Source: Paraspadella gotoi (Eukaryota; Animalia; Chaetognatha). From it: 64,000 bases of DNA. The position numbers were made by a program, and so were the translations under genes. Shown in pieces: positions 1,143 through 64,000 of this stretch (its first letter is position 1; every line of letters begins with the position of its first letter). The notes under the pieces are model-generated. The model was given only the letters and a program-made list of their open reading frames with translations. It was not told where the DNA came from and did no database searches. Where the stretch lies: the NCBI GenBank assembly GCA_051294375.1, contig CM119267.1:22383486-22447485 (forward strand). Direction: 5' to 3'.

Positions 1143-1694
1143 CTAGACGTCTAAGCAGGATCCGGCGCATTTTTTGATGGCGTCCCGGGCGAAGGGAATG
1201 TAGGAGATGGAGTACCAGGTCATCGCTAAAAACTGACAGATGCAGAAGATGAGCGTGAGGCCGCCCTTCTTTATAGCCAGTCCAGCGATTAGAGTCAAGA
1301 TCATAAACACGAAGACCAGCACCGTCGCAATGACCCGCGTCTTCGCGAACATCTTTTTAATCTGGTAAAAATTGGGACGAAACTTGTGTATTTGACGCCC
1401 TCCAAAAAACAGGAAAAACGTATAATGCCAAACCTGATTGACGGGGCCACAGAGGAAACACGTGGAGGACATGGCCACGATATTTCCCAAGGTGTAGAGG
1501 ATTCCAAAGGCCACCCACATGCTGAAGAAGATGCAAACGGAGCCGATGATGCTGAGGAGGATGCCGATAATGAAGCAGATGACGAAACCCTTGACCCGCG
1601 TTCCCCAACTCAACGTCGAATTGTCCATGACGCGAGTGAAAGCCCCGTCATCCTCCTCTTCCTCGCCGCTCAACGCGCGACGCAATTTATCCAT
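1143..1694 (-). CDS. SFT2D1: Vesicle transport protein SFT2 (SFT2D1/SFT2D2-like); 2 exons, intron 1362-1433
   Basis: MDKLRRALSG...STLSWGTRVKGFVICF...LYTLGNIVAMSSTCFLCGPVNQ|IKKMFAKTRVIAT...AMTWYSISYIPFARDA; 72-nt GT-AG intron read through in the ORF track. Paralog assignment is uncertain. Confidence 0.92.
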   Translation of the reverse strand: MDKLRRALSGEEEEDDGAFTRVMDNSTLSWGTRVKGFVICFIIGILLSIIGSVCIFFSMWVAFGILYTLGNIVAMSSTCFLCGPVNQVWHYTFFLFFGGRQIHKFRPNFYQIKKMFAKTRVIATVLVFVFMILTLIAGLAIKKGGLTLIFCICQFLAMTWYSISYIPFARDAIKKCAGSCLDV

Positions 1695-2029
1695 TTTTTT
1701 AATTCAAGAGGGAAAGGGGAATGTTTTTGATTTCGTGTGTGGGTTTTTTGTTATGTTTTGTTTTTGTTTTTGTTTTTTTTTGGCCTTTTGGTTAAATACG
1801 AGATTATAAACAGTTTATAACTGGATGTATATAGTTGAAGGTTGACAAGGCTGTAAAGATTCAAAAATAACAAAGAATAAATCGTAAATCGTAACACAAA
1901 CAACCGAACTACAAAAATCTTCTACAACTTCGGAAGCGGATGAATAAGGATCGAATCATTCGCCTCCGTCCACGGTTTATTCTCATGAAAATCTTTTCGA
2001 AAGAATCTCTTTCCACTCAGTCTCTCTCC

Positions 2030-4612
2030 TCAATCGTCGAACTTGAAAGAGTTGCACCCAGTGTCGATGGATCCGCCCTTGTAAGATCCTCGCTTCTTTT
2101 TCGTCTTCTCGTGCCTGAAGTCTTTGCCGCGGACTTTGATGAGTTGCTCGGCGGCCTGTTTGCCGTATTTGTCGAAGGAGCCGTCGTGTGAGTTGTCGCG
2201 GAGTTGAGGAAGGACTTGGATGTCCTCTTCCTTGACGCGGCGGAACCGATTGGGGGCGTTGTCCTTCTTGGCCTTTTTCGACGGAGGCTGGCCCGCGTCG
2301 AGGCTAGAGTCGGCCGTCACGAACGAAGCCGAGTTCGATTCGGAGTTGACCGAGTTCGCAGCGGCGGGCGTCGGGGGCTTGGGCGTGCTAGTGGCCAACG
2401 CCGATGGCGCTTTTTGCGGAACGGGAGTGTTTCCCGCCGAGGAGATCGCTTTTCGCTTGAGATCCGTTTTCTTAATGGGAGTGATGGAATCGACGTGGCC
2501 GTTGATCTTCTTCGGGGCAGAAGTTTCGTCTTCCGAGTCGCTCTCTTCTTCCGAGGAAGATTCCTCTTCGGAACTGGATTCCTCTTTCGCCGGAGTTTTC
2601 GTTGTTTTAGCAGCAACTTTGGCGCCATTTTTGTTTCCCGTTTTATCTCCTTCTTTGGCCGCATTTTTCGGCGGCGTTTTGGCGGTTGCCTTAGCCGAGT
2701 TCGCCGCTGGTGGAGCCGTTTCCTCGTCGCTCTCGTCGCTGTCCGTTTCTTCTTCGGATGAGCTCGATTCTTTTGCGGCGGCGGCTTTGACAGCAGCAGC
2801 TTTAGAATCTTTGGTTGCCGGTTTAGGAGCTTGGCCGTTAAGCTGCTGAGGAGTCGAGGTGTCCATCTCCGAATCGCTGGATGACTCCTCTTCCGAGGAA
2901 CTGGATTCTTCAACAGGCGCGGGTTTCTTAGTCGTTTTTGAGGCGACAGGTTTAACTTTATCCTCCGTTTTGGACCCTGCCTTGGACGCGCTCTTATCGG
3001 CCGCTTTTGGTGTCGTTTTAGAGGTTAGTTTAGGCGTCGCCTTTTTGGGCGTTGTTGTAGGCGACACTTTGGCGGCCGCTTTCGGCGTGGTTGGCTCTTT
3101 CGTGCCCTTTTTCGGCGGTGCTGGCGGCGTCGGCGCGGCCTTTTTAGGCTCGTCGTCGTCGGATTCTTCATCAGAAGATTCTTCTTCCGACGAGGATTCT
3201 TCTTTCTTCTCTATCGTAGTTTTAACAGCGGGGGTCTTTGAAGGCGCAGGTTTTTTCGCCGCTTCGTCCTCGTCCTCCGATTCCGAAGATTCCTCCTCGG
3301 AAGAGGAAGATTCCGCTTTTTTTGCTCTGTTTGCGACGGCCGGACTTTTTGCTTGAGCAGCGGCGGGCTTGACGGCCGGACTTTTTGGTTGAGCAGCGGC
3401 GGGCTTGGCGGCCGCCTTTACCGGCTCCTCTTCCTCGCTAGAAGATTCTTCCTCCGATGAACTCGAATCTTCTTTTTTCGAGGCTGCGGCGCCGGATTTA
3501 GGCTTGGACGGCGCCGAGACGGGGGCAGAAGGCTTGGTAGGCTCGTCGTCGTCCTCGCTGGACGATTCCTCTGAAGATTCTTCGGACGACGAGGGTTTCT
3601 TCGCGACTTCTTTGTTTTCCTTTTTCGCAGTCGTTTCCTTCATTTCTTCCTCGGTGTCGCTCTCCTCCTCGGAGGACGATTCCTCTTCCGAACTGGACTC
3701 GGCCTTAGCTGTCGTCTTCGTCGGGGTCTTCGTCGGGGTCTTCGTCGGGGTCTTCGTCGCTGGAGTGGCTGGTTTTGTCCCGCTCGCCTTGCCAGTTTTG
3801 GCGTTGGCGTTCTTGTCCGGAGTCTTCTTCGTCGCCGCAGTTTTGGATTTCTCCGCTGACTTTTTGCCGTTCTCCTTATTGGCCGCCGCCTTTTTGTTGG
3901 AAGCTTCATCACCCGGTTTTTGGGAAGCCTTGGGAGAAACTGATTTAGATTCTGCATTTTTCGTTGTCGTCGCAGTCGTTTGAGATTTCGACGTAGATTC
4001 CGATTCGCTCTCTTCGCTCTCAGATTCGTCCGATTCGTCCGACGAAGATTCGGGCGGCTTCTGCGTCTTCTTCACTTCGGGCTTTTTCGATTCGACTTTT
4101 TCCTTTCCCTTTTTAACTTCGGTCCCCTTCTTTAAGATTCCCTTCTTAGCATCTTCATTTTCCGCTTTCTTCGTTTCTTTCGCTTCCGTCTTCTTAACTT
4201 TGTCCTTTGTCCCTTTGGCTTCTTCCTTTTTCGCTTCCTTTTTATTCGCCTTCGCCGGCTTCTTTACTTTCTTTTCCTCCTCTTCCTCGGAACTCGACTC
4301 TTCCTCCTCCGAACTGGATTCCTTCTTTTCTTGTTTAGCCTTTTTCGCCGCCTGGATTTCTTCCATCTCGCTGTCACTCGACGACTCCGCTTCTCCTTTC
4401 CGAGATGCCGAAGCGCTCTTCCGCTTCAAGCACTCGTCCCTGATCCTCGTGAGCGAAGATTCGAAGAAGGCGGCCGCGTCGGCGTCGAGTTTAGGATCGA
4501 GGGCGATGGCGTACTTGTTTTGAATGATCTGGATCTCCTTGGGAAAGGTGGATTTGAGAAAAGAGCAGATGTAGGAGAGCACGTCCGCGTCCACCGGTTT
4601 TTTTGTCTCCAT
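2030..4612 (-). CDS. NOLC1: Nucleolar and coiled-body phosphoprotein 1 (Nopp140/SRP40), single exon
   Basis: Alternating acidic-serine (SSSEEESS) and K/A/P-rich blocks; SRP40_C end (FRRVK...KVRGKDFRHEKTKKKRGSYKGGSID...SFKFDD). First in-frame ATG is at 4612; the ORF track begins at a TTG. Confidence 0.93.
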   Translation of the reverse strand: METKKPVDADVLSYICSFLKSTFPKEIQIIQNKYAIALDPKLDADAAAFFESSLTRIRDECLKRKSASASRKGEAESSSDSEMEEIQAAKKAKQEKKESSSEEEESSSEEEEEKKVKKPAKANKKEAKKEEAKGTKDKVKKTEAKETKKAENEDAKKGILKKGTEVKKGKEKVESKKPEVKKTQKPPESSSDESDESESEESESESTSKSQTTATTTKNAESKSVSPKASQKPGDEASNKKAAANKENGKKSAEKSKTAATKKTPDKNANAKTGKASGTKPATPATKTPTKTPTKTPTKTTAKAESSSEEESSSEEESDTEEEMKETTAKKENKEVAKKPSSSEESSEESSSEDDDEPTKPSAPVSAPSKPKSGAAASKKEDSSSSEEESSSEEEEPVKAAAKPAAAQPKSPAVKPAAAQAKSPAVANRAKKAESSSSEEESSESEDEDEAAKKPAPSKTPAVKTTIEKKEESSSEEESSDEESDDDEPKKAAPTPPAPPKKGTKEPTTPKAAAKVSPTTTPKKATPKLTSKTTPKAADKSASKAGSKTEDKVKPVASKTTKKPAPVEESSSSEEESSSDSEMDTSTPQQLNGQAPKPATKDSKAAAVKAAAAKESSSSEEETDSDESDEETAPPAANSAKATAKTPPKNAAKEGDKTGNKNGAKVAAKTTKTPAKEESSSEEESSSEEESDSEDETSAPKKINGHVDSITPIKKTDLKRKAISSAGNTPVPQKAPSALATSTPKPPTPAAANSVNSESNSASFVTADSSLDAGQPPSKKAKKDNAPNRFRRVKEEDIQVLPQLRDNSHDGSFDKYGKQAAEQLIKVRGKDFRHEKTKKKRGSYKGGSIDTGCNSFKFDD

Positions 4613-5120: not shown

Positions 5121-7536
5121 TCAGAGAAAGGATATCCAAGTTCTGTCGGCGTCGTGCAGAGGACACTGACGGGCGTAGCACTCGACGACGTAATTGACGC
5201 CATCGTTGTTGTCCCAGTAGATACGACCCATCGCCGAGTAACAGACGGCAAACTCGAACACGTCGCCCTTGACGAAGTGGCGGGGGACGTTGAGGGTGAA
5301 GTTGTAGGAGGAAGAAGAGGAGGAGGAAGAGACGCGACCTTGGGGGTGAGGAAAAAAGGGTTAATACGAAAAAAAAAGTTTTGTAGACAAAAAAATAAAG
5401 TCAAGTACAAGTATAAAATTGTATTGATTCAATACCGGCAGGGACGTCGTCGAAAGAATTCCAGTCGTTATAAGTACAACGGATGAAGACTTTTTTCTGG
5501 TCGTCGGACGAGAGATTTGCAACTTCTGCTGTGCCTATTTTGACGTATCAATTTCCTTTGCATAATGCAGTGTGAAATTTCACCTCATGATTTCCCTTCA
5601 ACTCACCCAATATCAAGTCCGGAGTGATGTGAAACTTGTCTAACACCACCTTCCTTTCCTCTAGTAGGCGATTCTTTACCGCCTCACTCCTCGCCTCCGT
5701 GTTGAAATTTAATGGGATGAAGAAGCGAGCGCCGATGTCTCGCCGGTCGCGTTCGATTCCCGACCTCAACGCTTCCAACGCCCGAGAAGGGATGCGAATC
5801 TCGTCCGATTTCAGAAATTGCTTTCGCGTCGAGATGTCATGGCCTAAAAGGAAACGAAATATGCTTATAAAACTGTTCCACTATACTAAATTACAAAGGG
5901 TTTCCCGTCCGTTTAAGTTGAGATTCTCCGAAGGTAAGAAAAAAAAAACATTAAACATTCCACTGGCTTCATAGTAATTTCTACATTTTAACTTAATCTT
6001 TTCAACCTTTCAATTTAAAATTCCCAATACCGAAACATCCACTGTCTAATAAGGTACCTTCGGTGTCGGCGAATCTGACACGAAGCATCCTTTTTGCGCA
6101 CTCGCTCCTCTTATCTTTCTTCGAAGGTTCTGCCGAGTGGCTTCTCTTAATTGCACTGGAAGAAGAGGATCTCGACGGCTTGCGCCCAGAAGAGGCGGAC
6201 TGACTGTGAAGACTCTTGTCGAAGCCGTTGGGAAGAGTGGCCAAAGGTTGAGCAATCGAGTCTATAGAGGGTTTTGCGATGTTACAGGTAGGCAATTGTA
6301 CTCATAAGCCTAAAATCTAGAGTGTAAATGCCATCTTAATTGTCCCCCCCCCCTAGACAACATCGCAATAATCAACCATTTATCTCTCGCTTGCCTTTTT
6401 TGTCGCCAAAATAGGGGATCCATTCGGAAACAATCTTTGGGACGTCGGAAGAAGAATCTATATCTTTTTCCTGCGAAGTGGAGCCATCGAGAAAAAAGCC
6501 CACGTACACTTTTGATTCGGGATTCTTGAAGATCTTTCTCGAGCTAAATTCCAGATCTTCGTCGATTAACTTGTCGAACAGGGGAAGTAATCTTTAAAGA
6601 TACACAATAATAATAAAAGAAAAAGATTTTCGATCAGACTTTGCCTCGAGTTCCTCACCGGTCCTTATGCAGCGATTCCATCGAGGCGCTTCTGCCGAGG
6701 AAGCTGGGAATGCTGGAGGCGCTCGAATTTTTCTCGCAGGTGCAATCGGAGAGATTCTTGGGCAAGAAGTCGGCATAGTACTTTTTGAGGTCGACATCGG
6801 ACGGGGGCGGACATATCCACTCGCTCGTGGGATAGAGATCACGTGTAAGTACGGTCACCAGGGCGCTTTGGCCGCCGACCCAAGCGGCTGAGAATCAAAT
6901 CCGAAAAGGGAAAGTTTTTTAGACCATTAGGCAATAGGCATGAAGCCGAAACCTTTTCTCAACGCATTAATAGATTAGATAGAATTTGATTTACGTTTCG
7001 ACTTCGACGTTCGAAATTCGATTCACTAGATCCACTTTCTTTTCTTTTAAATTTATTCCAACACTCCCCGCAATCAAATTAACACGAAAGAAAACAACAA
7101 TAATTCGGAGTAAAAAGAACTTACTCGGCGGTCTGTGCGTTTCAGAGAACACTCGCCGGCCGAGAGAGCCATGCACTTGGCAGCCAGTGTCGCGATTCTC
7201 TTTAAGATCGCGCGAGAACCTCGGCCAGGAACCGTCGGGGGCGCTTTTCGAGCCGACCACGCCGACGAGGCCGCGACGCGGCGACGTTGACTCTCGGCGG
7301 CGGAAGTCTTCGCTCGGGCGATCGACCGTGAAGCCTTTGTTATCGAGATTAAACCGAGGAGGTGTATCTCTGAAAAGAGACCAGTCGGCCGAGAGTTCCG
7401 GGGATCTCGAAACACATTTCATTTCCGAACGCGAGGCCTGCACCAAGTCCGCCAGATCTCCGCCTCCAACAACTTCCTTCTTCCCGGACAGGAGGCTCTG
7501 GAGAGTGGAAACCCTCCCGTTTCCCAAGGACTGCAT
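5121..7536 (-). CDS. PPP1R3: Glycogen-targeting regulatory subunit of protein phosphatase 1 (PPP1R3 family, CBM21 domain); about 7 exons
   Basis: PP1-binding RVxF motif (RVRFAD, ~6070); CBM21 exons GTAEVANL...KKVFIRCTYNDWNSFDDVPA (~5437-5535) and FEFAVCYSAMGRIYWDNNDGVNY (~5121-5338). The 5' exons are low-complexity and less certain. Confidence 0.8.
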
Positions 7537-7663
7537 TCCCCTCCTAATTCTCAGAAATAGGGGGGTGGGTTATTTCTTAATTTGTCATGGCTGTAAAAAA
7601 AAAATTAACGTGAGAAAATGAAATGAACAGATGGTACCGTATTTCACGCTCTTTTGAATACGC

Positions 7664-8083: not shown

Positions 8084-9781
<1,698 letters not shown>

Positions 9782-10038: not shown

Positions 10039-11133
10039 TCACACATGTTGAGCGAAAAAGGTCAGAGCGGCTTCGATGGCTTTTTTCACGTCCCGGTTGA
10101 CGTTAGATTCCCGCATGCTGCCCCTCGTCGTCCACCCGTGCACCATCTCGGGAAACTCGACGATCTCCAGGTTTTTCCCCAGGATTTTGGTTCCGAGTCC
10201 GCCGGGCTTGACGTTGGCGTGGTCGTTCCCTATTTTTTTAAAAAAATAATATACTAATTAAAACAGTATAATAATTATTAATTGATGAATGACTTTTGAA
10301 TATATCTCTACGAGACAATACACACTTTTTTCTCTCTTCCTGTTTGATTCTCAATCACTCACCCGAAGCCAAAAATAAACTCACCCGCCGGCATAAAAAG
10401 CTGGGGACACTTAACGGCTTTGAGCATACGCGTTTCGTCGTCGCCGCTCATCTTAGCGATCCCCGTGTGCGCCGGGTGCATGGAGACCCCGGCTTTAAAC
10501 TCGGACATGGCGCATTCTTTGACGACCATGTAGGTGCCCCAGCAGGTGCCGATGGCAGCAAAGCGGGATCCACCCATCGACTTGGCCTTTCCTAGAACGG
10601 CTTCCACGTCCTTCACCAGGTGCCGCCAGTCAGACTTGGACTAAGGACGTGGCCAAAAAAATATAATTTAACAATATTTTTGCTTCAAAACATAAATGTG
10701 ACGATAACAACCTTTAGAAAATCACCAGCTCCTGGTTTCTTTGGATCGTGATAATCGCCCTTTCGGTAAAAATCAGGCAACATGACCAAATAACCTACAA
10801 AAGTCAGAAGCTAAGCTGCTAAGAAGATTCTAATTTTAATAAAAAATTGTAAATATTTTTCAACTTTTCTACCTCATTTTACTTTTTTTCTAAATGTGTT
10901 TTCGCTTTATAAAATCTTGGCCAACCTCTTTCCGAAAAGAAATCGCAAAGCATCTTCGTTCGTCCCCCATTGAAACCGAAAATGTCGTAATTCCAAAGAA
11001 TGCATTTTCCGTCGATGGGTTCTCCCACGTGATAAACGTCCATGTCGCCCATGCGTTCGACTCTACCATGGGGTTTGTAAGTGTCTGAGGGAGTTTCCAA
11101 GGCGCCCCAAGATCCATCGGGACAACATTCCAT
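10039..11133 (-). CDS. Dienelactone hydrolase family protein (CMBL-like), copy A; 4 exons
   Basis: MECCP...ILWNYDIFGFNGG; VMLPDFYR; nucleophile motif GTCWG; P...AG.D; MVHGWTTRG. Confidence 0.88.
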
Positions 11134-11471: not shown

Positions 11472-14400
11472 TCAACGCGTAAAAGATCGAGAGTGATTCC
11501 GAGAATCAAAGTCCCTGCCTCCTCTTCCTGTCCCTCTTCCTCCGCGAGTGTGAAATCCACCTCCACCCCTCCCGCCCCCACGGTCATTAAACCCCCGCCC
11601 GTTGCCCCTCGGGGGGCTATCGCCTCGCGACCCGGCGAAGGTTCCGCTCCTCGGCGGGCTAGATCTCGGCCCAGCGCGGAATGGCTCTCGTGAAGATCCT
11701 CGCCCGCCGCCGGGATATCGACCTCTCGGGTCGCCTCCGCCCGCGCGGAATGGTAAGCCACGCGACGAGGACCCTCTCAACGGGGGATTAGTGGATCCGT
11801 TACGGGCTCTCTCCGAACTGCCGCCTCTTGTAGAATCGCGTTCGCGGATGAGTCGCGCCGGCGACCCCGTTCGATCCTCTTGACTCCCAGAGGCGCCGAC
11901 TTCGACGTTAGTCTTGGGCGAGCCCTCCTTGACCGGCCTCTCGGCGTTGAGGAGGTTGATCCTCTCCTGTTCTTTTTTCTCCCTCTCGTATTTTTCAATC
12001 TTGTCCAATTCCATCTGCAAGAAATCGTCGACATGCATGGATGGCGGGCGTGAGGTGTTGGGTGGACGCGATCGGAATGGATCCTGCCGGCCGGGCGGCC
12101 CACTCCGCGCCGGACAGCCACCGCGGCCGCCTCGCATAGGGGCAACGAACTTCTTGCCCTTCCCTCCTCCGCGGCTGATATTGATGGTGTCTCGGCCGGC
12201 GCGCTTCGGCTTCTTACGCGGAGTCTTGAAGTCCTCCGGCAGGTCGGGATGGTCCTTGGCCAGAGCCCCGACCAGATCAAAGTTATTTGCGTAGCGTTTG
12301 GCAAGATCCATGAGGTCAAGTTTTACGAGGTCGTCGTCGGTGGGATTATAGTAGTTTTCCTGTTCATCCCAAAATTCGGAGTTCAAACGTTCGTCTTCAT
12401 CTCTCAGGACGACGTACATGTTCCGCGAGGAGAACTTTGTCTCGAGGGAACGCGGTTTTTCCTTGAGGTCGACCTCCGTCATGACGGTGGTGGTGTGACG
12501 GCCAGAAGGTGGCGCCCCGTCGCCAAACATCCGTCCCAAGATATTGACCAGAGTCTCGTGAAGACTCTGGAGGGTCTCTTCGCCCTCCTCTTCCTCCTCG
12601 GCAGCATAGTCGTGTAGCAATTTCTCCAAGTCACCCAAGGGATGTTTTGTTTCGCGGTCACCATCCCACTTGACAAGTTGCTTTACATAATCTGGGCCGA
12701 AAACGTAACGGCGAAGTTGCTTGGAGCCTTCGGAGTCTTCCTCGCGTCCGTCGACGACCATCATGACGTTGAGCAACTCGATGGCGCCCTGTAGCATCGC
12801 CAGGTACTCGTCGTCCTTGGCAAAAGTCGAGTGAAGTCTCGCAAAGAGATTGTACAAATCTGAAGCTGCGCCTTCCTCGTTTTCGCGCTCGTAGTTTTTC
12901 TGAGCTTTGGTGAAAGCGTTTTTCAGGTGGAACATTGTATAGTCAAACTCGGAAAAGAGGACTAAACCTCGGAGGGCGCCTAAGACGCTGGACATTGAAT
13001 GATCATTGTTTCCAATGTGGGAGATGAGGGCCTCGGCGATGTCCCTTAGATACTTGGGGCTCGGAATGGCGTTTGCAAGCCTGACTTGAAGAGGAAGATC
13101 CGGGCCACAAAGATTAATGTCCGAATCCAGAAGGGATTGAAAAATTGTCCCGATACATTCCTGCAGCTGTAACGTCAAAGTATTGTCAGTCGACTCTTCG
13201 AAAACGTGCATAAGAATAGCTAAAAATCTTGGGGCTCTGGAAGGGTCGGCAACGGCGCCGTAACGACCCCTGGAGGCATCTCCCGTAGAATTTTTAAAAG
13301 CTTCATTGTCACTGCCATCGAGAAGCGAAAGAAAAGTACATTTGATGGATGGCTGGGATACAAGTACGCTGAATGCCGTCATGACTTTGGCACAAGCCGC
13401 CGCGGGATCTAAACCACCGGGAGTATTCATGAAATTGGCCGAGGTCGGCTTTACTGATTGTCCAATAATCAGATGCAGGCAGTCCAAAGCCATATCTTGA
13501 AAAGAGCCAAGAATTATCGCCGCCATTTGGTGGCTCAAGTCGGCGATTTGGCAGCAGACCTTTTGAAAAATTCCTTGATGCTTATGGGGCATGCAGAGCG
13601 CTTGCGTTTTTATCGTTTCGACCAGTTGATTTTTAAGAGGCAACATATGTCGCGACCAACGTTTACGATTCTCAGCGTGGATGGCAACCTCGGAGGTTGT
13701 CATTGGATGCCGCGTTTGAAGGGGTAGAGGGAATGGGAGTAACTCGCTGAGAAGTAGCATTCCGCCGTAAAAGGAATACGGCATTGTCTGGCAAAGATCG
13801 AGTATCTCTTTGATCATCATAGTCCAGAGCGAATCTTCGCTGGCGTCGTCCTCTCCCTTGTTCGAGACAGATACTTTATCGTTGATCGATCCCGTGGGAG
13901 CGTCCATAAGCTGAGTCAGCGCCAAAAGACCCTCGAGAACGTTGTGGCGTATGAGGCGGATCCTGGCAGGCGGTAACTTGATGTGCGACTGAATGCTGCA
14001 GAGAACGTTAAATGCCCCGAATAAAGGCTGAACGGGAGTCACGTCTTTGTAGTTGGTGGATTTTGCCTCGATCAGGTGCTTGAGAATGTTGGACAACAAA
14101 ACTACAGAGTGTTGAACAATGACGATTGCAGAGGAAACATCGGCACTGTTGATTAAAGCCCCTTGCTGCCACGGACGGATCAAAAAGTCGGAGCAAGTTT
14201 TAATCAAAACGTTTTGTAAATTTAGTTTTCCTTCCTCGTGGAAAAATTCCACGAGAGAAAAGCGATATTTTAACTCTCGTGCAACGGTCAAGCTCTCCTC
14301 GCCCTTTGACCCGTGTTTCGGAATGCCCTCGTTCCGCTCTTCGGGCGGAATGCAAAGGTCTACCAAGACTCGCAAGCAAGTGATTATCGCTTTGGGAATT

Positions 14401-31291: not shown

Positions 31292-31334
<43 letters not shown>

Positions 31335-31487
31335 TTACAAAGGGAAAATACATGCATAAATTGTAAATTGGAAAGATTTCATGATGAATGCCTAAATTCG
31401 TAGACTTAAATGTAATGAAGTAGCTTTTTATGGCCTATTGTTTTATTTTGTGCCTAAAGCCCCATCGAATAAATTCAAAAATTCAAA

Positions 31488-31551
<64 letters not shown>

Positions 31552-38024: not shown

Positions 38025-41328
<3,304 letters not shown>

Positions 41329-41460
41329 AACGATGAATGGTTAAGTTCGCTTTTACGAAAACATACAAACTGAAAACATTCAATGAAAAGTTACAAAAAG
41401 CAAATAATATCACAGATGAGCTTTTGAAGATCTTAAGACGAAGTGTCTATAAAAACTTGG

Positions 41461-49165: not shown

Positions 49166-49469
49166 CTCATCTAGTTTTTTTCGTCGTACCCTGACTTCCG
49201 CGAGTCTGAGAGATTCTCCCGACGCCTTCCATCGTCGTCCTCGTCGTCGTCACTCCCCTTTCTCGCTTCTTTATTTTTTTTTGTAATCGATCGAAACGAA
49301 TTAAAGAAAAAAAGAAAATAGGCGTAATCAATTGAAAATCATAAATACCGACGGATCGCTAAAGAATAAACCATGTACAACGACAACGCATGTAATAAAT
49401 CAAGCAGTTGTTTACACGAACGCAATGTATAACGAGTCTCTTCCTCATTTTTACCCCCCAAATCTTCGT

Positions 49470-52400
49470 TCAAAACAAGGGTTCCCAATTGCTGTCGTCG
49501 ACCGGTCTCAAGACGCCCTGAATGAGCAGCACGATGTCCACGAGCCACCAAATGCCAAGACCGCCGATGGTTAGCAGCTTGCCCACGCCCGAGCCCATGT
49601 GACCCAGACAGAACCGGTCCATGCCGAGGAAGCCGAGCAGGATGGAGTAGAGGAGGGTAGTGACGAAATAGTGGCCCGTGTAGCGGATGCAGGGGTATCC
49701 GTCGCGGAAAAAGACGCGGGGGCCGAGGCACTCGATGCCGTCGAGGGCGCGGCACACCACCTTCGTCCGCTCAACGTCCTCCCAGCGGTCGCCGCCCCAC
49801 GTGGCGCACCCGTGACCTAACTCGTCGCGGGCCGTCACGTTTTCTGTTAAGGGAGGAGTAAACTTCTTCAGATTCCATAGAAAATTATAATATTATTAAT
49901 ATTAATATCTATAATATTTATTATATAATAAAACCATTTATTAATTACTGGTCATTATTTACAGTTCATATACTATACCGGAAGAGCCACGAAACTGACC
50001 CCAAAGAAAAAGTTGTAGCATCTGAACTAATTGTCCGATTTTTATTAACAAGCTTTTAATTTAAAATTTAAAATCTAAATGACAGGAAAAACCTGTTTTA
50101 ATTCCGAATCTTAAAAACAACGTTCCAGCTATTTGCAAGTTTCTCTTGAAGACGAAATCTGACTGATAAAACTTTCGCAAACAAGATTCCATTAATGTTG
50201 CCCGTTGTCTATGACCCATTTCACAGACACTCAAAGGCTCAAACTTTGGCTTACTGCTGTGGGTAGACACTAGGTTAGCCATGGGATAATGATACCCATT
50301 AAAACTAACATGATTTGTGATTGTAGTTGCGCTATCAATCATATTTTTAATCGAAGTTGTTACAGAGCTATGAATTATTGGGAAGGTCACCGGGTCAGTT
50401 TCGGTGGCTCTCCTGGTACTGTGAAAATCACCAAAACATTTTAGTCAGGTCAACAACAACAAAAAAAAAATCGTAAAAGCATAAGGATCGTCGCAATAGC
50501 ATAAGAAAAATCTGGATTGACGACAAATTTGAGAAAAGAAAATTAATTTATAAACAGAAAGAAAAAGAAAAGAATAAATATAAAGAAAGAATAGAAAGGA
50601 AATAAAGAATAGAAAGGAAAGAAAGAATAGAAAGGAAAGAAAGAATAAAAAGGAAAAAAATATTAGAGATGGATTTGCGTGGACGCCGATGGACTCGATG
50701 GAAACTACGACATTTATAAACTCATTTCAGTTATAAATAATCTTTATTGATTGTCATTACTTATCATTTATTGATCTGTTTCCTTTTAGTGAAAAGAGTA
50801 TCGTGCTATATTAATAAATGATATGTGTCAGAATATTAATGCGTTTTATTTCGAATTCAACAAGGTTGATTCAGTACATACAGGAGCATCAAAAAAAAGC
50901 TAAGTCTAAAAACAAAACAAAGTTAAAGATTGCGTGAAAACCACCACCACAGACAACAAAGGTCCAAATTAAAATTAATATATTTCAATCATTAAAGAAT
51001 GCGATTATTTTTTTGATAACTAAATTTTTCGAACTATAGATCTTGGAAATAAAGTTCTTTTTACGGTAAGGAAAGAAAGAATATGAAAGGAAAGAAAGAA
51101 TAGAAAGGAAAGAAAGAATAGAAAGGAAAGAAAGAATAGAAAGGAAAGAAAGAATAGAAAGGAAAGATAAGAAAAATAAAAATAAAGAGAGTGACGAGAA
51201 GAAATAACGAAAGAAAAAGCCGATGTTGCAATAGCAAAAAGATAACATGCACGAATGCGACGCCTAATTTTACGAGTTCAATCCTAATTCAATTTTTTTT
51301 TTAAATTAAAACGCAGAGAGAGAGAGAGAGAAGCCAAATCGTTTTCGGACGAATCAGCAGAAGCAGCAGGAAAAAAGAGAGAAAAAGAAAAAGCCCCTGC
51401 AGAGCCCAAGGAATCAGCGACTGGGGAAAAGAGAGAGAGAGAGCTACATATAATTAAAAGAGAAAAAGAGAGAAAAAGACAAAAATAAAAGTAGAGCAAA
51501 TTTGTTGGTTTTGATAAAACGTAAACAAAACGTATTTAATAAACGTCCTCACACAATTTTAAGGACCTCGATGATTAGAAGCTGTATATAAATTTTCAGC
51601 TTCATACACCCAAATTTAATCTTCAAAAAGGCGATCTATAAATTGGAACGACGACGACGCCACTTATGTGCAAAAGCGTTACGAGATCGTCGCAAACGCA
51701 AAGCGATTGCGACGATAAAAAAGATTTATCCAACAATTACATTCACATCGCTACAATCAGATGACTCATAAATCGTCACAAACAATCCCCCTAAACCTCA
51801 CTTTTGTGATCGACAGGTTCATCGCACTCGACGAATTCCGAGGACAAAAAGTCGCAAGGTAGCAATGGGTTGAGTGGCATCGAGGCGGCGATGGCGTCGT
51901 CGACGCAACACGCGTCGACTACGCTATCGCCGCACGACGCCGGGCCGTCTAACGAGACGGCGTCGGCATCCACGACCAAGGGCGCCGGTGGAGAAGTGGG
52001 CGTTGGACCCGTCCTGAAGCAACGATGAGGTTCTGCCACGGAGATGGCGTGAAACTGATACTGGTTAGGATGATGGAACGAGGAGGAGGAGGAGGAGGAT
52101 GCGGCGGTGGACGACGGTGAAGGAGGATAAGAGGTCGCTGAGGCTGACGACGTCGCGCCGGAAGGGGTCGTGGACGACGACGGCGCGAGCGTCGATCCGG
52201 ACGGCGTCGTTGCCGGCGTCGTCGAATTTTCTGAAGACGACGACGACGGGTCGATCGACGACGAATTAGACGACGATTCCGCCGTCCGCCTCTCGGGAAC
52301 GTCCGCCTCGTCGTTGCTGTTCATCACAGAAACGCTTGGAGAAGAAGCTGAGGAGTTGTCGACGGCAGCGTTGAGAGAAATCGGCGGAATGTGGAGGAGG

Positions 52401-52570
52401 AGGAGGAGGACGAGGAGAGCGGGCGTCTGCGGGAGATCCGAGAGGGGAACGAGGAACGTCCAACGTTTTCTTCTTCTCCGTTGTTTCCGACGATCGACCG
52501 TCGACAACGAGGACGACGGATCCCGCCGCGTCGACCGGGAGCTTCCGGCGCCGACCGGGAGGAACGGCAT
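49470..52570 (-). CDS. TM2D2: TM2 domain-containing protein 2; 2 exons, intron 49844-51801; start codon uncertain
   Basis: [22 protein letters not shown]|[13 protein letters not shown]...[15 protein letters not shown]...[31 protein letters not shown]...[17 protein letters not shown]; hydrophobic signal segment and Ser/Thr-rich ectodomain. Confidence 0.92.
49978..50416. mobile_element. Non-autonomous TIR DNA transposon (MITE, Tc1/mariner-like) in the TM2D2 intron
   Basis: Left end CCGGAAGAGCCAC-GAAACTGACCC vs reverse complement of right end CCAGGAGAGCCACCGAAACTGACCC; TA flanks both sides (49976-49977, 50417-50418). Confidence 0.75.
50583..50656. repeat. 18-bp purine-rich minisatellite (AAAGAATAGAAAGGAAAG)n, array 1
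   Basis: About 4 imperfect tandem units. Confidence 0.8.
51073..51167. repeat. 18-bp purine-rich minisatellite (AAAGAATAGAAAGGAAAG)n, array 2
   Basis: About 5 tandem units of the same motif as array 1. Confidence 0.85.
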
Positions 52571-53043
52571 CGGAGGAAGGACGCGCCCAGAGCGCGCGCG
52601 GTGAGACGATGGGCACGCGCGCCCCGACGGTCGGACCGCGATCGCGAGAGGAAAAGGGGCGAGTCGACGGTCGCGAGAAAACGGAAAGACCCTGACCGTC
52701 CAAAAAAAAAAATGATCTTTTCTCTCAGTTGCTGTAAGAAGCTTTAATCGTTGTTCGTCATGATTTAGCACGAGGCGATCGTTGGGATTTCTCAGCGGGA
52801 CATTTCGATTCGAGCGTTAGGATCGATCGACAAAAAAATCCTTTCCCCTCCAATTTTCTTTCTTCGCTTTTCATTGTTGAACGAAGTCATTTTTCTGATA
52901 AACATTAAGAATCACCAAGTGTATAAAATGAGAAGAATATATTGCCAAAAAAAATTCCAATAAAACTACATAGCATCGGTGGGGTGAGATTCTAGTCTTA
53001 ACCTCCATGTAAAAATTTAACACCAACAATATTGCAAAAAAAA

Positions 53044-53053
53044 NNNNNNNNNN
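53044..53053. other. Assembly gap (10 N)
   Basis: Run of n in the EEF2-TM2D2 spacer. Confidence 1.
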
Positions 53054-53456
53054 ACAAAATTTGAAAACAAAAAGAATACCTACCATCTACATTTTGTATA
53101 ATATAAATGGAATGCCAATTTAGAAATCTATATAGATTAGTAAAATCATCCGTAGTTTTTCTTTTTTAGCTCGAGTAAGTATAAAATAAATTGCAAAAAC
53201 TCCAACAAAAGACAAAAAAACATTCTATTCCGTAATTCTTGTCGATGAAAAAAAAGCCGACAAATACAATACAATGTAATTAAGTTAACCTTCAAACAAA
53301 AAGTATTTGTATCTTGGTTTTTCTGGATAATACGCGAATACACAACTTGATACCAATAACGTATCTGAGATTCCACCAGAATAACAAATAACGAAAAATA
53401 ACGGAGATCGGGAATGTTACGGATTGTACCACAGTTCCAAGAAAGCCGAGAAAATT

Positions 53457-57173
<3,717 letters not shown>

Positions 57174-57418
57174 TCAACAAAAAATAAAAGGGAAAACTGC
57201 GGAAGAAAAGTCGGGGCGAGGGGGACAGATAATAATATAGTACTTATATCGATTATGATCAATTTAAAACCGCGACGACGAGTTAGGTCTATAAATACAC
57301 AATCGCAATTTTTTTTTCCTGGTTATGTTACACAAAAACTGAACAGTCAAAAGAAGAGAAATTAAACAAAGATATCCAAAGTCAAAGAAGTCTGCGAGTG
57401 ACTAAAACTGCGCAGGAT

Positions 57419-58288
57419 TTATTTGGCAGAAGTTCTTGTCCTTTTGTTCCACGAGTAGTTGGCGCCGTAGCTCTTCTTGAGGCGCCTGAGTCTCTGAGGT
57501 TCTTCGACGTCGTATTGCCATTGGTTCCGCTGGCAATAGTTGATAGCGTCCTCCAAACTGGCGAATTCAATGACCAAGTTGGACAAGGGGTCGCCCGACG
57601 AACACCATCCCATCAAGGGATTCTCCCATCTATTCGTTTTGCGAAAGGGAATATGGAGGGAAAGAGAAAATGCTTCCGGAATTAACATTCTGACTAAATT
57701 AGCGAAAACCGAACGGGTGAAAAAATAATAAGAATCCAATCTAAAGAAACTTATAAAGATGAAAAGGATATCTTACCCAAAACCGGTTTCTCTGTTTAAA
57801 CTTTTACTCGGCGCTAATAAATAGGAAAAGCATAAAAAAACCGGTCGTCGTCAATTCGAACTCACAACCTCCCACTTTCCTTACCTTTCCCAAGCATCGA
57901 ACTCGATACGCCACTTGTGAGTGGCCGCCGTGCCGCTTTGCATCGCGTTCTTGGAGGGAACGAAGATGCGAGCGCGGCGATGTTGGGTGTGCACTTTGGG
58001 AACGCCAGCCAGATCGACCACGTTGACTTGTTCATCGCCTACCAAAAATTATTCATTCAAAATTATAATTTAAATCGGTAACTGAATAAACAAATGTTAA
58101 TTATTAGTTCGTTTACCGACGATAGCGATTCGCTTTTCTTGCTCCGTTTGGATAACGTTTTCTTCCGTCACCGGTGGTGGCGTCGTCGCCGTCCCGCGCC
58201 AAATCCCCATAGTCGACGCCCCGGTAAACAAAAGGCCCGTGACGCGCGAATGAAGGGCGCCGCGGAGAAGGCCGGCGGCCAGAGCCAT
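57419..58288 (-). CDS. NDUFS4: NADH dehydrogenase iron-sulfur protein 4, mitochondrial; 3 exons
   Basis: Mitochondrial presequence; RRARIFVPSKNAMQSGT...WRIEFD; RWENPLMGWCSSGDPLSN...KSYGANYSWNKRTR. Confidence 0.95.
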
Positions 58289-58695
58289 CTCTCGTTGGAA
58301 ACGAGAATCGAAATGACTAACGAAACTGAAGATGTCGGAATGATCAGGAGTGAAAAAAAATATAGGAGAAAAAATATGAGGCATAATTGAAAAGAGTCAA
58401 CGAATATAGCTAGTATAATATTAATATGAAAATGATTGAAGTTATCATGACTGGATCAATGTTATTCCATTTCTCTACATGCTACATCAAGAATAACGTA
58501 ACAAAATTAAATAAATCTTCTCGTTTCCCGCTCCTTTTTTAATTGAATTGCACGGTAAGTATTAAAAAAAACTTTAAAAAAGCGCCAGGATGTTAAAAAG
58601 GGGGATAAAAATGAGACATTCTTGTAGGGGAAGAATAGCCGGCACTACCGCTTAATTTTTTTCGCAAGGCAAGGGAAAGAAAAAAAAGACAAAAA

Positions 58696-61600
58696 TCATT
58701 CTCTCGTCCAAACTTTCCACGTCTCGAATTCTGACGCGTCCAACCCGCTTAGGGACTTGAGGTTTTCCACGTAAAAGGCGAGTTCGGTCATGACGAGTCC
58801 ATGCTTTGGTCCACCGTCGTTGGCAATTCCCTGACGTCGCAATTTGGTGCCAAGCGAGACGAGCAGGGCGTCGTGAACGTCGAGCAAGATGGAGCGAACC
58901 TGGTCTCGGGGCAGGAGGTCCACGATGGCTTCATGGAACTTGACCAACTGGCGACCGATTGAGCGGAAACAAGCAGAGGGCACGGGGGCCTTCGCTTCCC
59001 AATTCTCCAGATCCCGCTCGAACATGGACTCGACGATGTTGACGAGCTTGTTGTGGATAAGTTGGATGTGTTCGTTGTAGTCCTTCTCCAACTGGTTAAA
59101 GTGGCGAGTGAGCGTGTGTCGCCGCGTCTTTGTGAGGGCGGAAACATTGGTCGGGGTAGGAGGGCGCGATTCGTCGTTCTCCGTACTCTCGCCAAAGGAC
59201 GAGGGTCCCGTCTCCGTGGCGCGAGTAGCGTCCTCCGGCGGCGGAGATAAACTAGAAACGTACTTGCGTTTGATTAGCTTGACCAGAGTAAGCGCCAGTT
59301 GAAGCGATCGAGATGCGAGGGCGAGGTTTTTGGTGCTAATCGTCTTGAGTCCGACCAGTTGAAGGGCGCCGGCGCCAACAACCAACTGACAGGTTCGCGA
59401 GTTAAAGGTCTTTAAGAGTTCGACGAGTTTACTCAATACTTCGGGCACGGTGGATGGAATGTCGCGAACGCACTTGCAATAGTCTGCCATCATGCGCATT
59501 AGAAGGAGCACCGTACCGACGACGGCGAAGGGTTCCCCGTTGACGAGGAGATGCTGCTGCGGCGGCGGAGCGTTGTTCGCTGCCTCGGCGCTGGATTTGG
59601 TCGTCGGCGGGGGCAGCAATTCTCCGGTGCGAAAGGCTTCGTCTGCCATAACCTGAAATTCGGAGGGCACGTCGGCGACTTTCCATCGCTCGCTGTCGAG
59701 AATTAGGCTGAGCTTCGTTTTTCGCTCCTCGTGGAATCGATTGACGAACCGTCCCGCCTGGGTCGTCAGGCTGGAGCGGAGAGCCGTGCCGCGTCGGCCG
59801 CAGACGCGTTCGCAGGCGGCGGCGAATGACTCGACCATTTTGCAGAGAAGCACGAACTCGACCGAGCTAATTTTGTCCATGTAGCCGCCCTTGGCACGGG
59901 AGGCTATAACCTTGATGCAGCGATCCTGGGCGTGGTCGCAAGCGAACCAAACTAAGTCACGGAGGCGATTCTGCTGTTTGACGAACTCGTCCTCGTCGCC
60001 ACAGAGTTTCGCCGACAAGGAAGAGTCGGATCGTACGAAGCGACGGTCAGCAAGTCCGCCGATGCCGATCACGCCCCCTTCCTCGGGCGTCCCTTCGCGG
60101 CTTCCGCTGCGCCGTTTGGGCTTGAGGAAAGGCGGTTCCGGAGAACGCAGCGTCGGTTCACTGTCGCGGCCTGTCCTTCCCGCGGCGACGCAGAGCACGT
60201 CGCTCATGACATTGTGGGCGGCTTTGACGCGTCGAAGAAAGACGATGATGCGACGGAAGACGATGTCCATCATCGGCAGCCATTGAGCGAAGGTCATTAG
60301 GCGCATCTCGTCGGCGAGGCAGGCCACGGCCGGATCCTGAGATGGCAACTGGTCGATGTCAATCGTTTCCTGCTTGACTCGATCAGAGACAGCTTGGCGG
60401 ATCAAAGTCTTGGTCGCTGCGGCGATTTCCGACCGGTAGATGTCCACAAAGTTGAATTTGTCAATCCTCAGCATGCCCAGAACCAGAGCGACAAGACGCT
60501 CTTCCTCAAAAACCAAAGGCTCCGACTTTGATTCGGACAAGAAAGAGTCGGCGCCGTATGTCTCAAACTGGACGTCGACCGATTCCGCGTTGGCGCCGCG
60601 CTGCGTCATGATCTTGCCCTCGACGCTGACAAGACCGACGCCGGGATAATCAAGGTCTTTCTCGACGTCGGGGTTACCGTCGTCGACGCGCAAAGGGCTG
60701 ACGTTGACGGAAACTGGACGATTGAGGTCGGCCTGGGCGTAGGCGGTGAAATCCTCCACCAGCATCTTTTCGATAACCCCTTCGATCTCTGACAGCTGCG
60801 TGCCGAGATAGCGGAAACAATGGACTCCGGTCAATTCATTGTTCAGCACCTCTTGCGTCGTAGAGATGAGATCCAAGGCGCCGACATACTCCGAGGTTGC
60901 CAAGAGCAGCTGGATCGTTTGCTGCGTAGCGTGAACCGTCGACATCGTTTTCAGCCTGTGGTAGACCTTCAAATGATTTTCTTTTCTCTTGGCCAACCCT
61001 AGGACGGTCAATGGCTGCCGCACATGAACGGCCTCCAACTTTCGCATCATGGAGCGCAAGTTTTCGATGGAATTGCACGTGCGCGCCATGTGGTCTTGAA
61101 GCTCATCATGGGAAGCGAGGGCGTGGAAGAAGGCATCCGAGCGCGAGGCGATCTGGTCGGTGATGGCCTGTGCAGCCAGATTAAATAGACGGAAGATTAT
61201 AAAACGGATTCAGAGAGAAAGAGAGAGAGAATAAATCATCGTACATAATGACAAATTCAATTGACCAAATTACCTGTTCTATAACGTCCAGATAATGCGA
61301 GAGCTTCTCCTGCAGCAGCTTGGACGATTGTCGATTCCCCTCAAAACCCGGCGCCTCCATCTTGGACCAGTGGGCGAAAACGGCGTTGAAGGTGGGAGGG
61401 TCATCGAGGCCAAAGTCCGAACGAAAGAACAACTTGGGCACTTCCTCCAACGCCAGTCTCTGTCGTTCCTGCTCTAGAGATTTTTGAACGGCTTTACGAG
61501 AAACTATGGAACCCGGGAAGCCGTCGGCAATATCCTCGCCCGTCTCGGCCGCCTCGGCGGCCTTCTGCGATCGACGTCGCTGGCATCGCGCGCTGGTTCT

Positions 61601-62152
61601 ATCCAGATAATCCTGCACGTGAGAACGATCGATCCGCGGCACGAGCGGCGACGGCGATAGCGTCGTCCGCGTAAAGGCATCGCCCCACGTCTTGGAGAAA
61701 AAGTCGGCTGGGCGCGGTTTGTGGGGATCGCTGAGCACAGAGGCCACGTTGGTTGTGGCATCGTAGACGGTCCACTTGGGCTTGACGTCCGGGGACGAGT
61801 CAATCGACGGGACGTGGGAGATAGATGTCGGCGCTACGGTGGCGGCAGGCGAACTCTCGGAGCCACGCCGACACGCTGTTCGGTCTTCCATGTGATGCTT
61901 GCGCACGTGGTTTTCGTAGTCCCGATCGCTCACGCCCTCCAGCGGAAGGGAAGGGCAGACACCGTTGACTCCGTAGAGACAGACGAAGGAGCCGCCCTCT
62001 TTGGAACAGTGCCGGGCCCGTAGGTGTTTGGCGAATTCACCCGGGCTGCGGCAAGGCACGTTGGGCGAACAGGCGAGGCAAGAGGACCAAGGCGGCTGAG
62101 TCTCGGGGCGGGGTTTTCGGGCGGCGGCGACGCCCGACGACGACGACGTCAT
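58696..62152 (-). CDS. VPS54: Vacuolar protein sorting 54 (GARP complex); 2 exons, intron ~61169-61273
   Basis: DFFSKTWG; SSKLLQEKLSHYLDVIE; VHATQQTIQLLLATSEYVGALDLI; FHEERKTKLSLILDSERWK; FNSRTCQLVVGAGALQLVGLKTI; NDGGPKHGLV. Confidence 0.95.
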
Positions 62153-62463
62153 CGTCCGAAGAGGCGACGGCGACGGTTCATTCGAACAGAATTATATCTT
62201 TCATCGGCTGAGTTAGAGGCGTGGTGTTCCAAGCATCGATTCGAGAGAAATCATAATTTTTAGAAACGGGAGACGTTTTAGGGGTCGGGAACTGTCAACG
62301 TTGAAAATTATTAAAGGAACCAGAAACTCGATTGAGAAATAAATTCGAGGATGACAATAAGAAAACAAAAGAGCGCCGATGAACGAAGGCGACGACGAAA
62401 AAATTAAACAGTATTCAAGGCGAAAAACCCCGAATAAAAATTGCGGGAAAAACTGTTCCTCTA

Positions 62464-64000
62464 TTACGAATTCACATCACTCTTCTCATCTTCCTCGTTA
62501 TCATTCTCCTGCTTGCCCAGTTGCACGACGAAAGGTTCTGGATACTCGTCGGAAAAAAGGACGTGGCGCCTGATGAAGGCATCTGGCTGGTTGCGACGCT
62601 TGTACTCGATCCACCGATCGCGGTTGAGGTAAAACTGGCTGTGGAACACGTAGGGCGGTTTGATAAATTCCGGAAATTCGCAGAGTTTTCCGTCGTTGAG
62701 GACTAGGTCGAGATCGCTGGACGGGAGATCAAAGGAAAAATGGAACGTCGATCGGTCAGTCGTGATGGAATAATATAAAATATGTATATATATTGAATAG
62801 AATAAAATTAGTAAGTTGGTAGAATGTTAATCCACTAATAAATTCATCCCGGATTAAATCATTAACTTCCTCTCACCGATATTCCTCCGTTCCGATCTCG
62901 GCATCGCGTCGTGCCGGCCCAACCTCAGGTCGAGGAGCCGCGATCAAAACAGGGAAGTTGTCGTTCTCCGCCCGATACTCAACCGCGTACAGACGCTGCG
63001 TCGCATTACAGTTAAAAATTAATATTAAAAAAAGGATCCGTCAATTTAAGTCTTAAGTATTTTTTTTGTCTCTCATCTCACCATTTCGTCCGCTAACTGT
63101 TGAATGTCCTTTTGAGCCCTCAACGCACGAAAAAAGCCTTGGGTAATCGCGAGATAGTTTGTGGTGCTGTGTTCCACTCTAGCCCAGAGATCCTTTGAAG
63201 AAAAGACAAATAGTTATTGGGAGCCCGTCAACCCATTGCTCTCTAAGTTTGACAGTTTTGGTTAAACCTTGATCCCTATCGCCTGACAGATAACTTTTAA
63301 GACTCGGTGACACCGCAACCCGTGACCGCGTGGCCGGGGCTCGATGAACAGGTGACTGCCGTGAAATTTCGAGTAAGACTTGTGGAACACGGTGTGATTA
63401 TCGTACAACTTCATGTACTGAAGCCTGTTTTGAGGCGGAGGGAGGGGTTAATTAGAAAGTTAAATACTAGTGACGCATTGCATCGAAATTAAACTCAAGA
63501 ATTAAGTTTTAAAATGATTTTTCAACCTGAGAATTGCTTGATTCTTCGCCTTTCTATGCGCGTTATTTATATTATTGGACTTTCCGCGACCGAAGCCGGC
63601 CAGACCTTTCCCGTTACCCGTCACGGCGAGACAAGAGAAGGAAAAAGCCCTGAGAAATAATAGTTTCGAAGGAATTATAACGGCTCATCTCTAATAAAGT
63701 AATAAATTACAGACAAGTGTTCTTGTCTACCTTCCCACGGTTCCAGACATGTGAGATACGCGCTTTGATTGTAGGATCCACGTTTCGAAGTCTTCAAACG
63801 TCTGATCGCCTATTGATTTTCAACTTATAAAATTGGTAAAACTAATATAAAATTATTTTTATTATATTTTATTATTATATTATTATTTTATTATATTATT
63901 ATATTTCATTAGCAAAATCAAAAAAGGAAAAGACTCGCCTATGGGATCAGGCGGTCCCAGCTTTCTCCCGCCGTACTTGGCGGACGTCCAACCTCGCTCC
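62464..64000 (-). CDS. MRPS5: Mitochondrial ribosomal protein S5 (uS5m); 5' part lies beyond the window; at least 7 exons visible
   Basis: Hand-translated exons: ERGWTSAKYGGRKLGPPDPI|GDQTFEDFET; LAVTGNGKGLAGFGRGK; YDNHTVFH...GHGLRCHRVLKVICQAIGIK|DLWARV. Confidence 0.9.

Follow-up and report, generated by a model that had tools for sequence, protein, structure and literature searches.

A one-strand run of at least 23 housekeeping genes in the chaetognath Paraspadella gotoi that probably contains several spliced-leader operons

Gene content of the array

A 64,000-nt stretch of contig CM119267.1 of Paraspadella gotoi (assembly GCA_051294375.1; positions 22,383,486 to 22,447,485), here called the window, encodes 23 genes arranged head to tail across 64 kb, all of them (23/23) on the minus strand. 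This array is a cluster of 23 or more housekeeping genes on one strand and is open at both edges: MRPS5 is truncated by the right edge of the window and a TYW3-like gene by the left. The original prediction, made from the sequence before this analysis, described 22 minus-strand genes, all of which are present where it placed them. It also regarded the array as open at the right edge, which is the case, whereas its extent of 22 genes needs revision, as the TYW3-like gene is a 23rd member that leaves the window at the left. The features are listed below in the order of transcription, with the 5' half of the array running from MRPS5 to UPF2 and the remainder from LCMT1 to the TYW3-like gene. Gene symbols are labels derived from Pfam, PDB and ESM Atlas matches and from names given in the original prediction; RNA records 2 and 3 are contigs described in a later section.

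62464..64000, minus: MRPS5 (uS5m), 3' part, cut by the right edge; Pfam Ribosomal_S5 and S5_C; five introns skipped in RNA record 3
62153..62463, minus: MRPS5-VPS54 spacer, 311 nt; bridged by RNA record 3, which covers 61474-62716 unbroken
58696..62152, minus: VPS54, one intron; Pfam Vps54 and homologues; intron skipped in RNA
58289..58695, minus: VPS54-NDUFS4 spacer, 407 nt; bridged by RNA record 2, which covers 58116-61166 unbroken
57419..58288, minus: NDUFS4, two introns; Pfam NDUS4; introns skipped in RNA; relatives' orthologues with leader peptides
57135..57418, minus: NDUFS4-EEF2 spacer, 284 nt; RNA contigs stop at 57288 and 57142
53457..57134, minus: EEF2, 13 introns, 840 aa; Pfam; open spliced frame
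52571..53456, minus: EEF2-TM2D spacer, the longest, 886 nt; 10-N scaffold gap at 53043-53052; last third GC-rich
49470..52570, minus: TM2-domain gene (TM2D), a single 1958-nt intron; Pfam TM2
45413..49232, minus: intronless coiled-coil gene (CCDC150-like as a lead only); 1278-codon open frame; Atlas 0.96, weak recognition
41461..44971, minus: ERCC5/XPG, no intron found, frameshift near 44740; Pfam XPG_N and XPG_I
41329..41460, minus: ERCC5-CPSF3 spacer, the shortest, 132 nt by stop-to-ATG measurement
38025..41328, minus: CPSF3, seven introns, frameshift near 40625; Pfam; a relative's transcript (L001) starts in the leader
34054..37666, minus: SSRP1, 10 introns; Pfam; spliced-frame check
32677..33721, minus: translin; Pfam; spliced-frame check
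30849..32330, minus: NUS1; PDB match, E 6e-24
25524..30212, minus: UPF2, one intron; Pfam; spliced-frame check
23544..24764, minus: LCMT1; Pfam LCM; spliced-frame check
22340..23393, minus: CMBL-like dienelactone hydrolase, copy B (CMBL-B); Pfam DLH
21098..22019, minus: isochorismatase-domain gene (ISOC); Pfam; spliced-frame check
19901..20900, minus: C3orf33-like SNase-fold gene (name from the original prediction; a lead); open spliced frame; Atlas SNase 0.90
11472..19584, minus: VIRMA/virilizer, three introns, 2398 aa; Pfam VIR_N; spliced-frame check
10039..11133, minus: CMBL-like dienelactone hydrolase, copy A (CMBL-A); Pfam DLH; spliced-frame check
8084..9781, minus: WDR5, proline-rich N-terminus; Pfam; spliced-frame check
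5121..7536, minus: PPP1R3-like glycogen-targeting subunit, exon model partly fixed; Pfam CBM_21
2030..4612, minus: NOLC1/Nopp140, intronless; Pfam SRP40_C
1143..1694, minus: SFT2-like gene; Pfam Got1; spliced-frame check
1..343, minus: TYW3-like 23rd gene, 5' part, cut by the left edge; ATG at 343; Pfam TYW3 positions 2-36, E 0.0022, under the curated cut-off

Pfam supports 20 of the 23 genes if the sub-threshold match of the TYW3-like gene (E 0.0022) is counted. NUS1 was identified by its PDB match, and the C3orf33-like and CCDC150-like assignments are ESM Atlas leads only. About 190 N-terminal residues of MRPS5 fall outside the window. Minus-strand exons account for approximately 69% of the window, and the earlier statement that there is no credible plus-strand gene is borne out. 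There are 182 plus-strand open reading frames (ORFs) of at least 70 aa; none of the 69 that were scanned matches Pfam, and 104 of the 113 unscanned ones sit at least 80% opposite minus-strand exons. The window contains no tRNA, no match to Rfam families and no leader-like sequence that we could find, and no transposon gene was detected between the genes of the array.

Spacers between the genes

Spacer length is given here from stop codon to ATG, which is distinct from the distance between poly(A) site and acceptor, and the ATG of the coiled-coil gene was taken at 49232. The 22 spacers range from 132 to 886 nt (median 336.5), and 16 of them are shorter than 450 nt. The original prediction put them at about 130-890 bp, in line with these measurements, and the individual values that it quoted are exact (132 for ERCC5-CPSF3, 150 for LCMT1-CMBL-B and 197 for ISOC-C3orf33). 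Six spacers exceed 500 nt (range 508-886 nt). The longest of these, between EEF2 and TM2D, is a candidate unit boundary; it holds the 10-N gap, which leaves its length and the join at that point unproven.

The spacers yielded no promoter or poly(A) code. AATAAA occurs in 6 of the 22 (eight copies versus 4.8 expected), which is no clear enrichment, TATA-like words occur in five, and no 7-mer is common to the spacers except T-rich ones. Most spacers hold several upstream ATGs. Upstream of VPS54 (62204-62152) there are two short ORFs, and the stop codon of the second overlaps the VPS54 start codon.

Spliced RNA contigs that bridge neighbouring genes

RNA contigs from run X1 contain 0.72 of the words of positions 53100-62600 and match the window almost letter for letter. 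They were aligned over 57010-63840, a region with three of the 22 spacers, in one run of one study. All eight joints in these contigs correspond to minus-strand GT-AG introns, and because these eight introns are skipped, the contigs represent spliced RNA. Record 3 (6029 nt) runs through the MRPS5 exons and the 311-nt spacer into the start of VPS54. Record 2 (3781 nt) takes in the remainder of VPS54, then the 407-nt spacer and the whole of NDUFS4, ending at 57288. The two records overlap by 30 nt and together span MRPS5, VPS54, NDUFS4 and both spacers, so that two of the three spacers tested are bridged by spliced contigs. The third, before EEF2, is without contig cover at 57143-57287, and such a hole counts neither way. 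Runs X2 and X3 have almost none of the window's words; two pieces of 21-25 nt from X3 were taken as chance matches.

Record 3 also reaches past the right edge of the window by about 4.1 kb, of which, judging from human uS5m, MRPS5 should take up about 0.57 kb. This leaves about 3.5 kb beyond the expected start of MRPS5, and probably at least one further gene, on either strand, shares this contig.

The RNA also bears on whether the co-orientation is partly an assembly artefact, produced by a false join at the N gap or by other mis-scaffolding. The 10-N gap lies within the EEF2-TM2D spacer, and the frameshifts found in two essential genes suggest that some indels were left uncorrected. However, there is a single gap, the 19 genes to its left extend over 52 kb on one strand without a break, and the order MRPS5-VPS54-NDUFS4 is confirmed by the RNA. 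We consider an artefact of this kind very improbable.

Two other features of the X1 contigs were recorded. At 57010-57102 there are two more EEF2-like contigs that are less than 95% alike to the EEF2 of the array; the array gene may belong to a set of several paralogues, or the additional contigs may derive from prey. One contig departs from VPS54 at 61474 into unrelated sequence at a short palindrome, splitting the VPS54 contig, and is probably a library chimera.

Spliced leaders on orthologues in close relatives

Sequences from close relatives were available for three genes of the array. Exon 1 of CPSF3 is 91-96% identical in eight close relatives and at most 79% in named animals, and the CPSF3 protein shares 87-90% identity with close relatives versus 68-73% with the six named animals aligned. 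Among the 120 matches listed for VPS54, one relative reaches 66% identity and named species at most 46%. A quick CPSF3 tree, based on a single gene and 50 of 120 rows with the window's own protein left out, places six close relatives on a long stem within protostomes, loosely among spiralians.

A spliced 2326-nt CPSF3 contig (L001) was the sole locus from the scan, among 517 candidate stretches, with the relatives' C-terminal alignment; it is 90% identical to the CPSF3 of the window in protein and 77% in DNA. The first 11 nt of L001 are the last 11 nt of the chaetognath spliced leaders (SL) SL2/SL4 (PMC2481426, Table 3). This 11-mer is absent from the window and, by composition, has a chance of about 8e-6 of occurring at a given place.

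For NDUFS4, it was predicted beforehand that open-ended gene calls in relatives would begin with the translation of a leader. Six of the 32 cluster members extend upstream of the initial Met, and 6/6 start with leader-encoded peptides. In three, these are the eight residues encoded after the in-frame stop of SL2.0; two others carry the last three SL2.0 residues and one carries the whole of SL3.1 (PMC2481426). Leader peptides were found in 0 of 362 other proteins, a thin control, as only nine of these lack an initial Met. Leaders were therefore seen on relatives' orthologues for two of the three genes searched (CPSF3 and NDUFS4), and the VPS54 relatives yielded no 5' sequence. Because CPSF3 and NDUFS4 of close relatives carry chaetognath leaders, the window is very likely of chaetognath origin on this evidence as well.

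The relatives' contigs are of single-gene size: 2281-2557 nt for CPSF3 (8/8), 3487 and 3800 nt for VPS54 (2/2) and 906-1330 nt for full-length NDUFS4 (29/29, three 64-aa fragments excluded). These sizes, together with leaders directly before NDUFS4 and CPSF3 and the several upstream ATGs in most spacers, argue against multi-gene RNAs that are stable and translated unresolved, as reported for green algae. The bridging contigs are fully cis-spliced, which would suit such RNAs, but we regard this explanation as extremely improbable.

Number of transcription units

The number of blocks within the array depends on where it is cut. Cutting at spacers of more than 500 nt gives blocks of 4, 7, 1, 7, 1, 2 and 1 genes, cutting at 600 nt gives 4, 7, 1, 10 and 1, and at 900 nt the array is a single run of 23. 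We modelled run lengths from the numbers reported for P. gotoi (2,151 candidate operons with 5,061 genes; PMC12460157), with random orientation between operons. The expected number of runs of at least 23 genes per genome is 0.04 for scattered operons and 0.2 with the trans-spliced genes grouped together, and it rises to 5.6 when all operons adjoin one another; for runs of at least 13 genes the number is 10-61. The 23-gene run thus exceeds the scattered-operon model but not the clustered-operon model. The chance of 2^-21 in the original prediction used the wrong null, which assumes independent genes and ignores operons.

The entire run could be a single unit of at least 24 genes and more than 67 kb, with one promoter past the right edge and every gene freed by trans-splicing. 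None of the six long spacers coincides with a strand switch (a 1-in-64 chance), the RNA contig extends about 3.5 kb beyond the expected MRPS5 start, and randomly placed P. gotoi operons give only 0.04-0.2 runs of this length per genome. In Spadella, a bacterial artificial chromosome (BAC) has 14 co-oriented host-gene rows over 120 kb (PMC2481426). On the other side, the largest operons in the literature searched have seven to nine genes, a range within which the blocks of the 500-nt cut fall (at most seven genes). Internal promoters are common in Oikopleura operons (693; PMC6389100) and have been proposed in nematodes, with hybrid operons suggested for Haemonchus (PMC7652881). Furthermore, operons placed side by side would by themselves be expected to produce about six such runs, with no need for a giant unit, and the scaffold gap breaks the run. 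On balance, we find a single unit unlikely. The original prediction's claim of one or a few units of trypanosome scale goes beyond what the evidence shows, because promoters could lie in the six spacers of 508-886 nt, and cuts there would leave blocks of at most seven genes; 'one mega-operon' is an idea between unlikely and doubtful.

A bolder version would place chaetognath housekeeping genes in trypanosome-like directional domains. The run would then be one unit of at least 24 intron-bearing genes and more than 67 kb, such domains would be general in the phylum, the Spadella BAC of 2008 would be a second, transposon-stretched example, and the nine-gene maximum reported for operons would be an artefact of a 250-bp cut-off. 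We consider this proposal doubtful.

Proposed mode of expression

We think it fairly likely that the array is transcribed as a few long co-oriented multi-gene precursors, with internal promoters at some of the long spacers, and that these are resolved by the chaetognath spliced leader. RNA polymerase II (Pol II) would start at a few promoters, which would lie most plausibly beyond the right edge of the window and within some of the six spacers longer than 500 nt, and would read through the short spacers, with cis-introns removed while neighbours are still joined. Contiguous spliced cover is present for MRPS5-VPS54-NDUFS4, and single molecules of this kind could account for it. A chaetognath leader of 33-36 nt would be joined ahead of each downstream gene, as seen for CPSF3 and NDUFS4 orthologues in relatives and presumed for the P. 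gotoi array. Cleavage at 3' ends together with trans-splicing would yield single-gene mature mRNAs, as suggested by the relatives' contig sizes. Orientation would be kept, since a gene arriving in the sense direction needs only an acceptor, whereas an antisense gene would need its own promoter and would collide with read-through. We infer the places of the promoters, the single precursor molecules and the leaders in the P. gotoi array from these observations. The earlier suggestion of polycistrons resolved by SL trans-splicing fits what was found, with a lineage that it had named, leaders on two orthologues and two of three spacers bridged. Overall, the array probably works like a known chaetognath operon and contains several operons.

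Several observations weigh against precursors of this kind. A two-gene contig is not proof of one transcript, as overlapping untranslated regions (UTRs) give the same picture, and the RNA support is confined to the three spacers and the one run described above. Assembled contigs cannot display a leader, and none was seen on P. gotoi array mRNAs from X1. In the relatives, leaders may mark stand-alone genes. Acceptor-like sites were scored with a matrix built from the window's own intron acceptors. The best site per spacer scores 6.62, versus 6.44 in dinucleotide shuffles (p 0.90), and the best sites are not enriched near the ATG (13/22 in the ATG-proximal half). Sense scores exceed antisense scores (6.62 versus 4.8, p 0.0025), a difference that reflects T richness, and in seven of the 22 spacers a site no more than 160 nt from the ATG scores at least 8, although this was counted post hoc and such sites could also belong to 5' UTR introns. 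On the sense strand, the middle third of 20 of the 22 spacers is richer in T than in A (p 1e-4), and introns are alike (50/65); this skew fits transcription, but 3' UTRs also produce it. Spacer sequence alone neither proves trans-splice sites nor places promoters. In addition, about two-thirds of trans-spliced P. gotoi genes lie outside validated operons (3,565 of 10,197 lie within them; PMC12460157).

These same observations bear on the possibility that most genes have their own promoter within the 3' end of the upstream neighbour and are trans-spliced as stand-alone genes, with the RNA bridges arising where genes are densely packed and UTRs overlap or termination leaks. Operon calls leave out the majority of trans-spliced chaetognath genes (PMC12460157). 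The contigs cannot separate overlap from read-through, and the acceptor test gave a null result against shuffles. However, separate promoters leave the 22/22 same-strand neighbours unexplained, because compact housekeeping genes that are transcribed independently often lie head to head. Spacers of 132-200 nt also leave little room for them, and since the leader removes any 5' overlap from the mature mRNA, the bridges would require unprocessed RNA. We therefore judge separate promoters for most genes improbable, and favour a few multi-gene precursors.

Gene models and other observations

The 65 hand-curated introns have a median length of 78 nt, and spliced frames are open in 14 of the 17 genes checked. 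The exceptions are CPSF3 and ERCC5, with one frameshift each, and CMBL-B, with one wrongly entered acceptor. The two frameshifts are probably assembly indels, as the sequences of relatives' CPSF3 are continuous at the site. The first in-frame ATG of the coiled-coil gene is at 49165, with a possible start at 49232 across an A run; that run (49170-49180) may contain a third one-base frameshift, likely another assembly indel.

The density of introns differs greatly between genes. None is present in ERCC5, the coiled-coil gene or NOLC1 and a single one in each of UPF2 and VPS54, compared with 10 in SSRP1 and 13 in EEF2. Intron loss or retro-insertion into a transcribed run could explain this pattern. 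VIRMA has a 4.9-kb exon (11472-16385), and WDR5 has a long proline-rich N-terminal exon (9315-9781). Donor sites are generally weak beyond G|GT, and three introns are of the GC-AG type, at 63938 (MRPS5), 40229 (CPSF3) and 33383 (translin); the one in MRPS5 is backed by the loose end of an RNA contig. Intron 3 of SSRP1 includes a 30-nt stretch (36636-36665) that is similar to the last part of the exon before it and is equipped with splice sites; this stretch may be an alternative exon.

The CMBL-like paralogues (10039-11133 and 22340-23393) have the same orientation and are three genes apart, a local duplication within the array. CPSF3 (the 3'-end endonuclease), UPF2 and VIRMA are encoded in the array and would act on its own precursor, and autoregulation of the array through these proteins is a possibility, with XRN2 in C. 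elegans operons as a potential comparison.

Significance

If animal operon-like units reach dozens of genes, promoter-level control of much of the housekeeping genome would be ceded to RNA processing, translation and decay, with regulation as in trypanosomes yet with normal introns. The annotation of chaetognath genomes would change, since distance cut-offs would undercount operons. Such units would also make it possible to test why ancestral gene linkage is lost in trans-splicing lineages, and would be a natural system for studying how Pol II escapes termination after at least 20 poly(A) sites. The chaetognath assemblies, ATAC and long-read data already available are enough for a count of same-strand runs and of promoters.

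Comparison with known operon systems

Nearly half of P. gotoi genes are reported to be trans-spliced and 18% to lie in operons, defined by spacing below 250 bp, the longest with nine genes (PMC12460157). The main text of that source does not use the words strand, orientation or intergenic. In Spadella cephaloptera, RPS14 and PCNA form an operon (PMC2481426). In the 158-kb Spadella BAC 35A21, published in 2008, 14 of 14 oriented non-transposon gene rows are on the plus strand over about 120 kb, with eight transposon rows, one tyrosine recombinase and one row without orientation set aside and 17 prediction numbers not listed. Four minus-strand rows fall in transposon-labelled cells according to the page layout, and the authors suggested that the genes could belong to operons (PMC2481426). 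Because chaetognath operons and this long co-oriented BAC were already published, the array is less surprising than it had been scored in the original prediction. In the literature searched, which did not extend to the P. gotoi operon table and bioRxiv supplements, where this gene order may already appear, we found neither an animal operon of close to 20 genes nor any statement on strand runs in chaetognaths; a term search of the main text of three chaetognath preprints gave no mention of operons or trans-splicing. The mechanism is known, and the scale of the run is unreported in the literature searched.

The array resembles chaetognath operons in lineage, as judged by the leader match of relatives, in housekeeping content, retained introns and close spacing, and in the leader seen on relatives' orthologues of downstream genes. 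It differs from the operons described for P. gotoi, with their maximum of nine genes and 250-bp rule, in having at least 23 genes with no gap above 886 nt. It differs from the Spadella BAC in that no transposon gene was detected between its genes, whereas the BAC run is spread by gaps of up to 14 kb.

Operons have at most nine genes in Macrostomum lignano and two to eight in Caenorhabditis elegans (PMC8629364), at most nine in Schistosoma japonicum (PMC12582326) and up to seven in Ciona (PMC7986045). Like these and the operons of Oikopleura, the array has unrelated conserved genes on one strand with short spacers. Those operons are also reported to share leader trans-splicing, RNA assemblies that fuse neighbours and possible internal promoters. 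They differ in their leader sequences, and the array would be at least 2.5 times their largest unit if it is one unit.

In layout, the array is similar to the directional gene clusters of trypanosomatids, which are long one-strand runs of unrelated genes, and leader trans-splicing is a feature of trypanosomatids and chaetognaths alike. Trypanosomatid clusters can comprise hundreds of genes and are almost free of introns. The array, in contrast, has at least 65 cis-introns in 64 kb, eight of them confirmed by RNA. Trypanosomatid clusters cover almost all genes (PMC12582326), whereas about half of chaetognath genes are trans-spliced (PMC12460157). By its introns, the array is not a trypanosomatid cluster, though the two are alike in layout.

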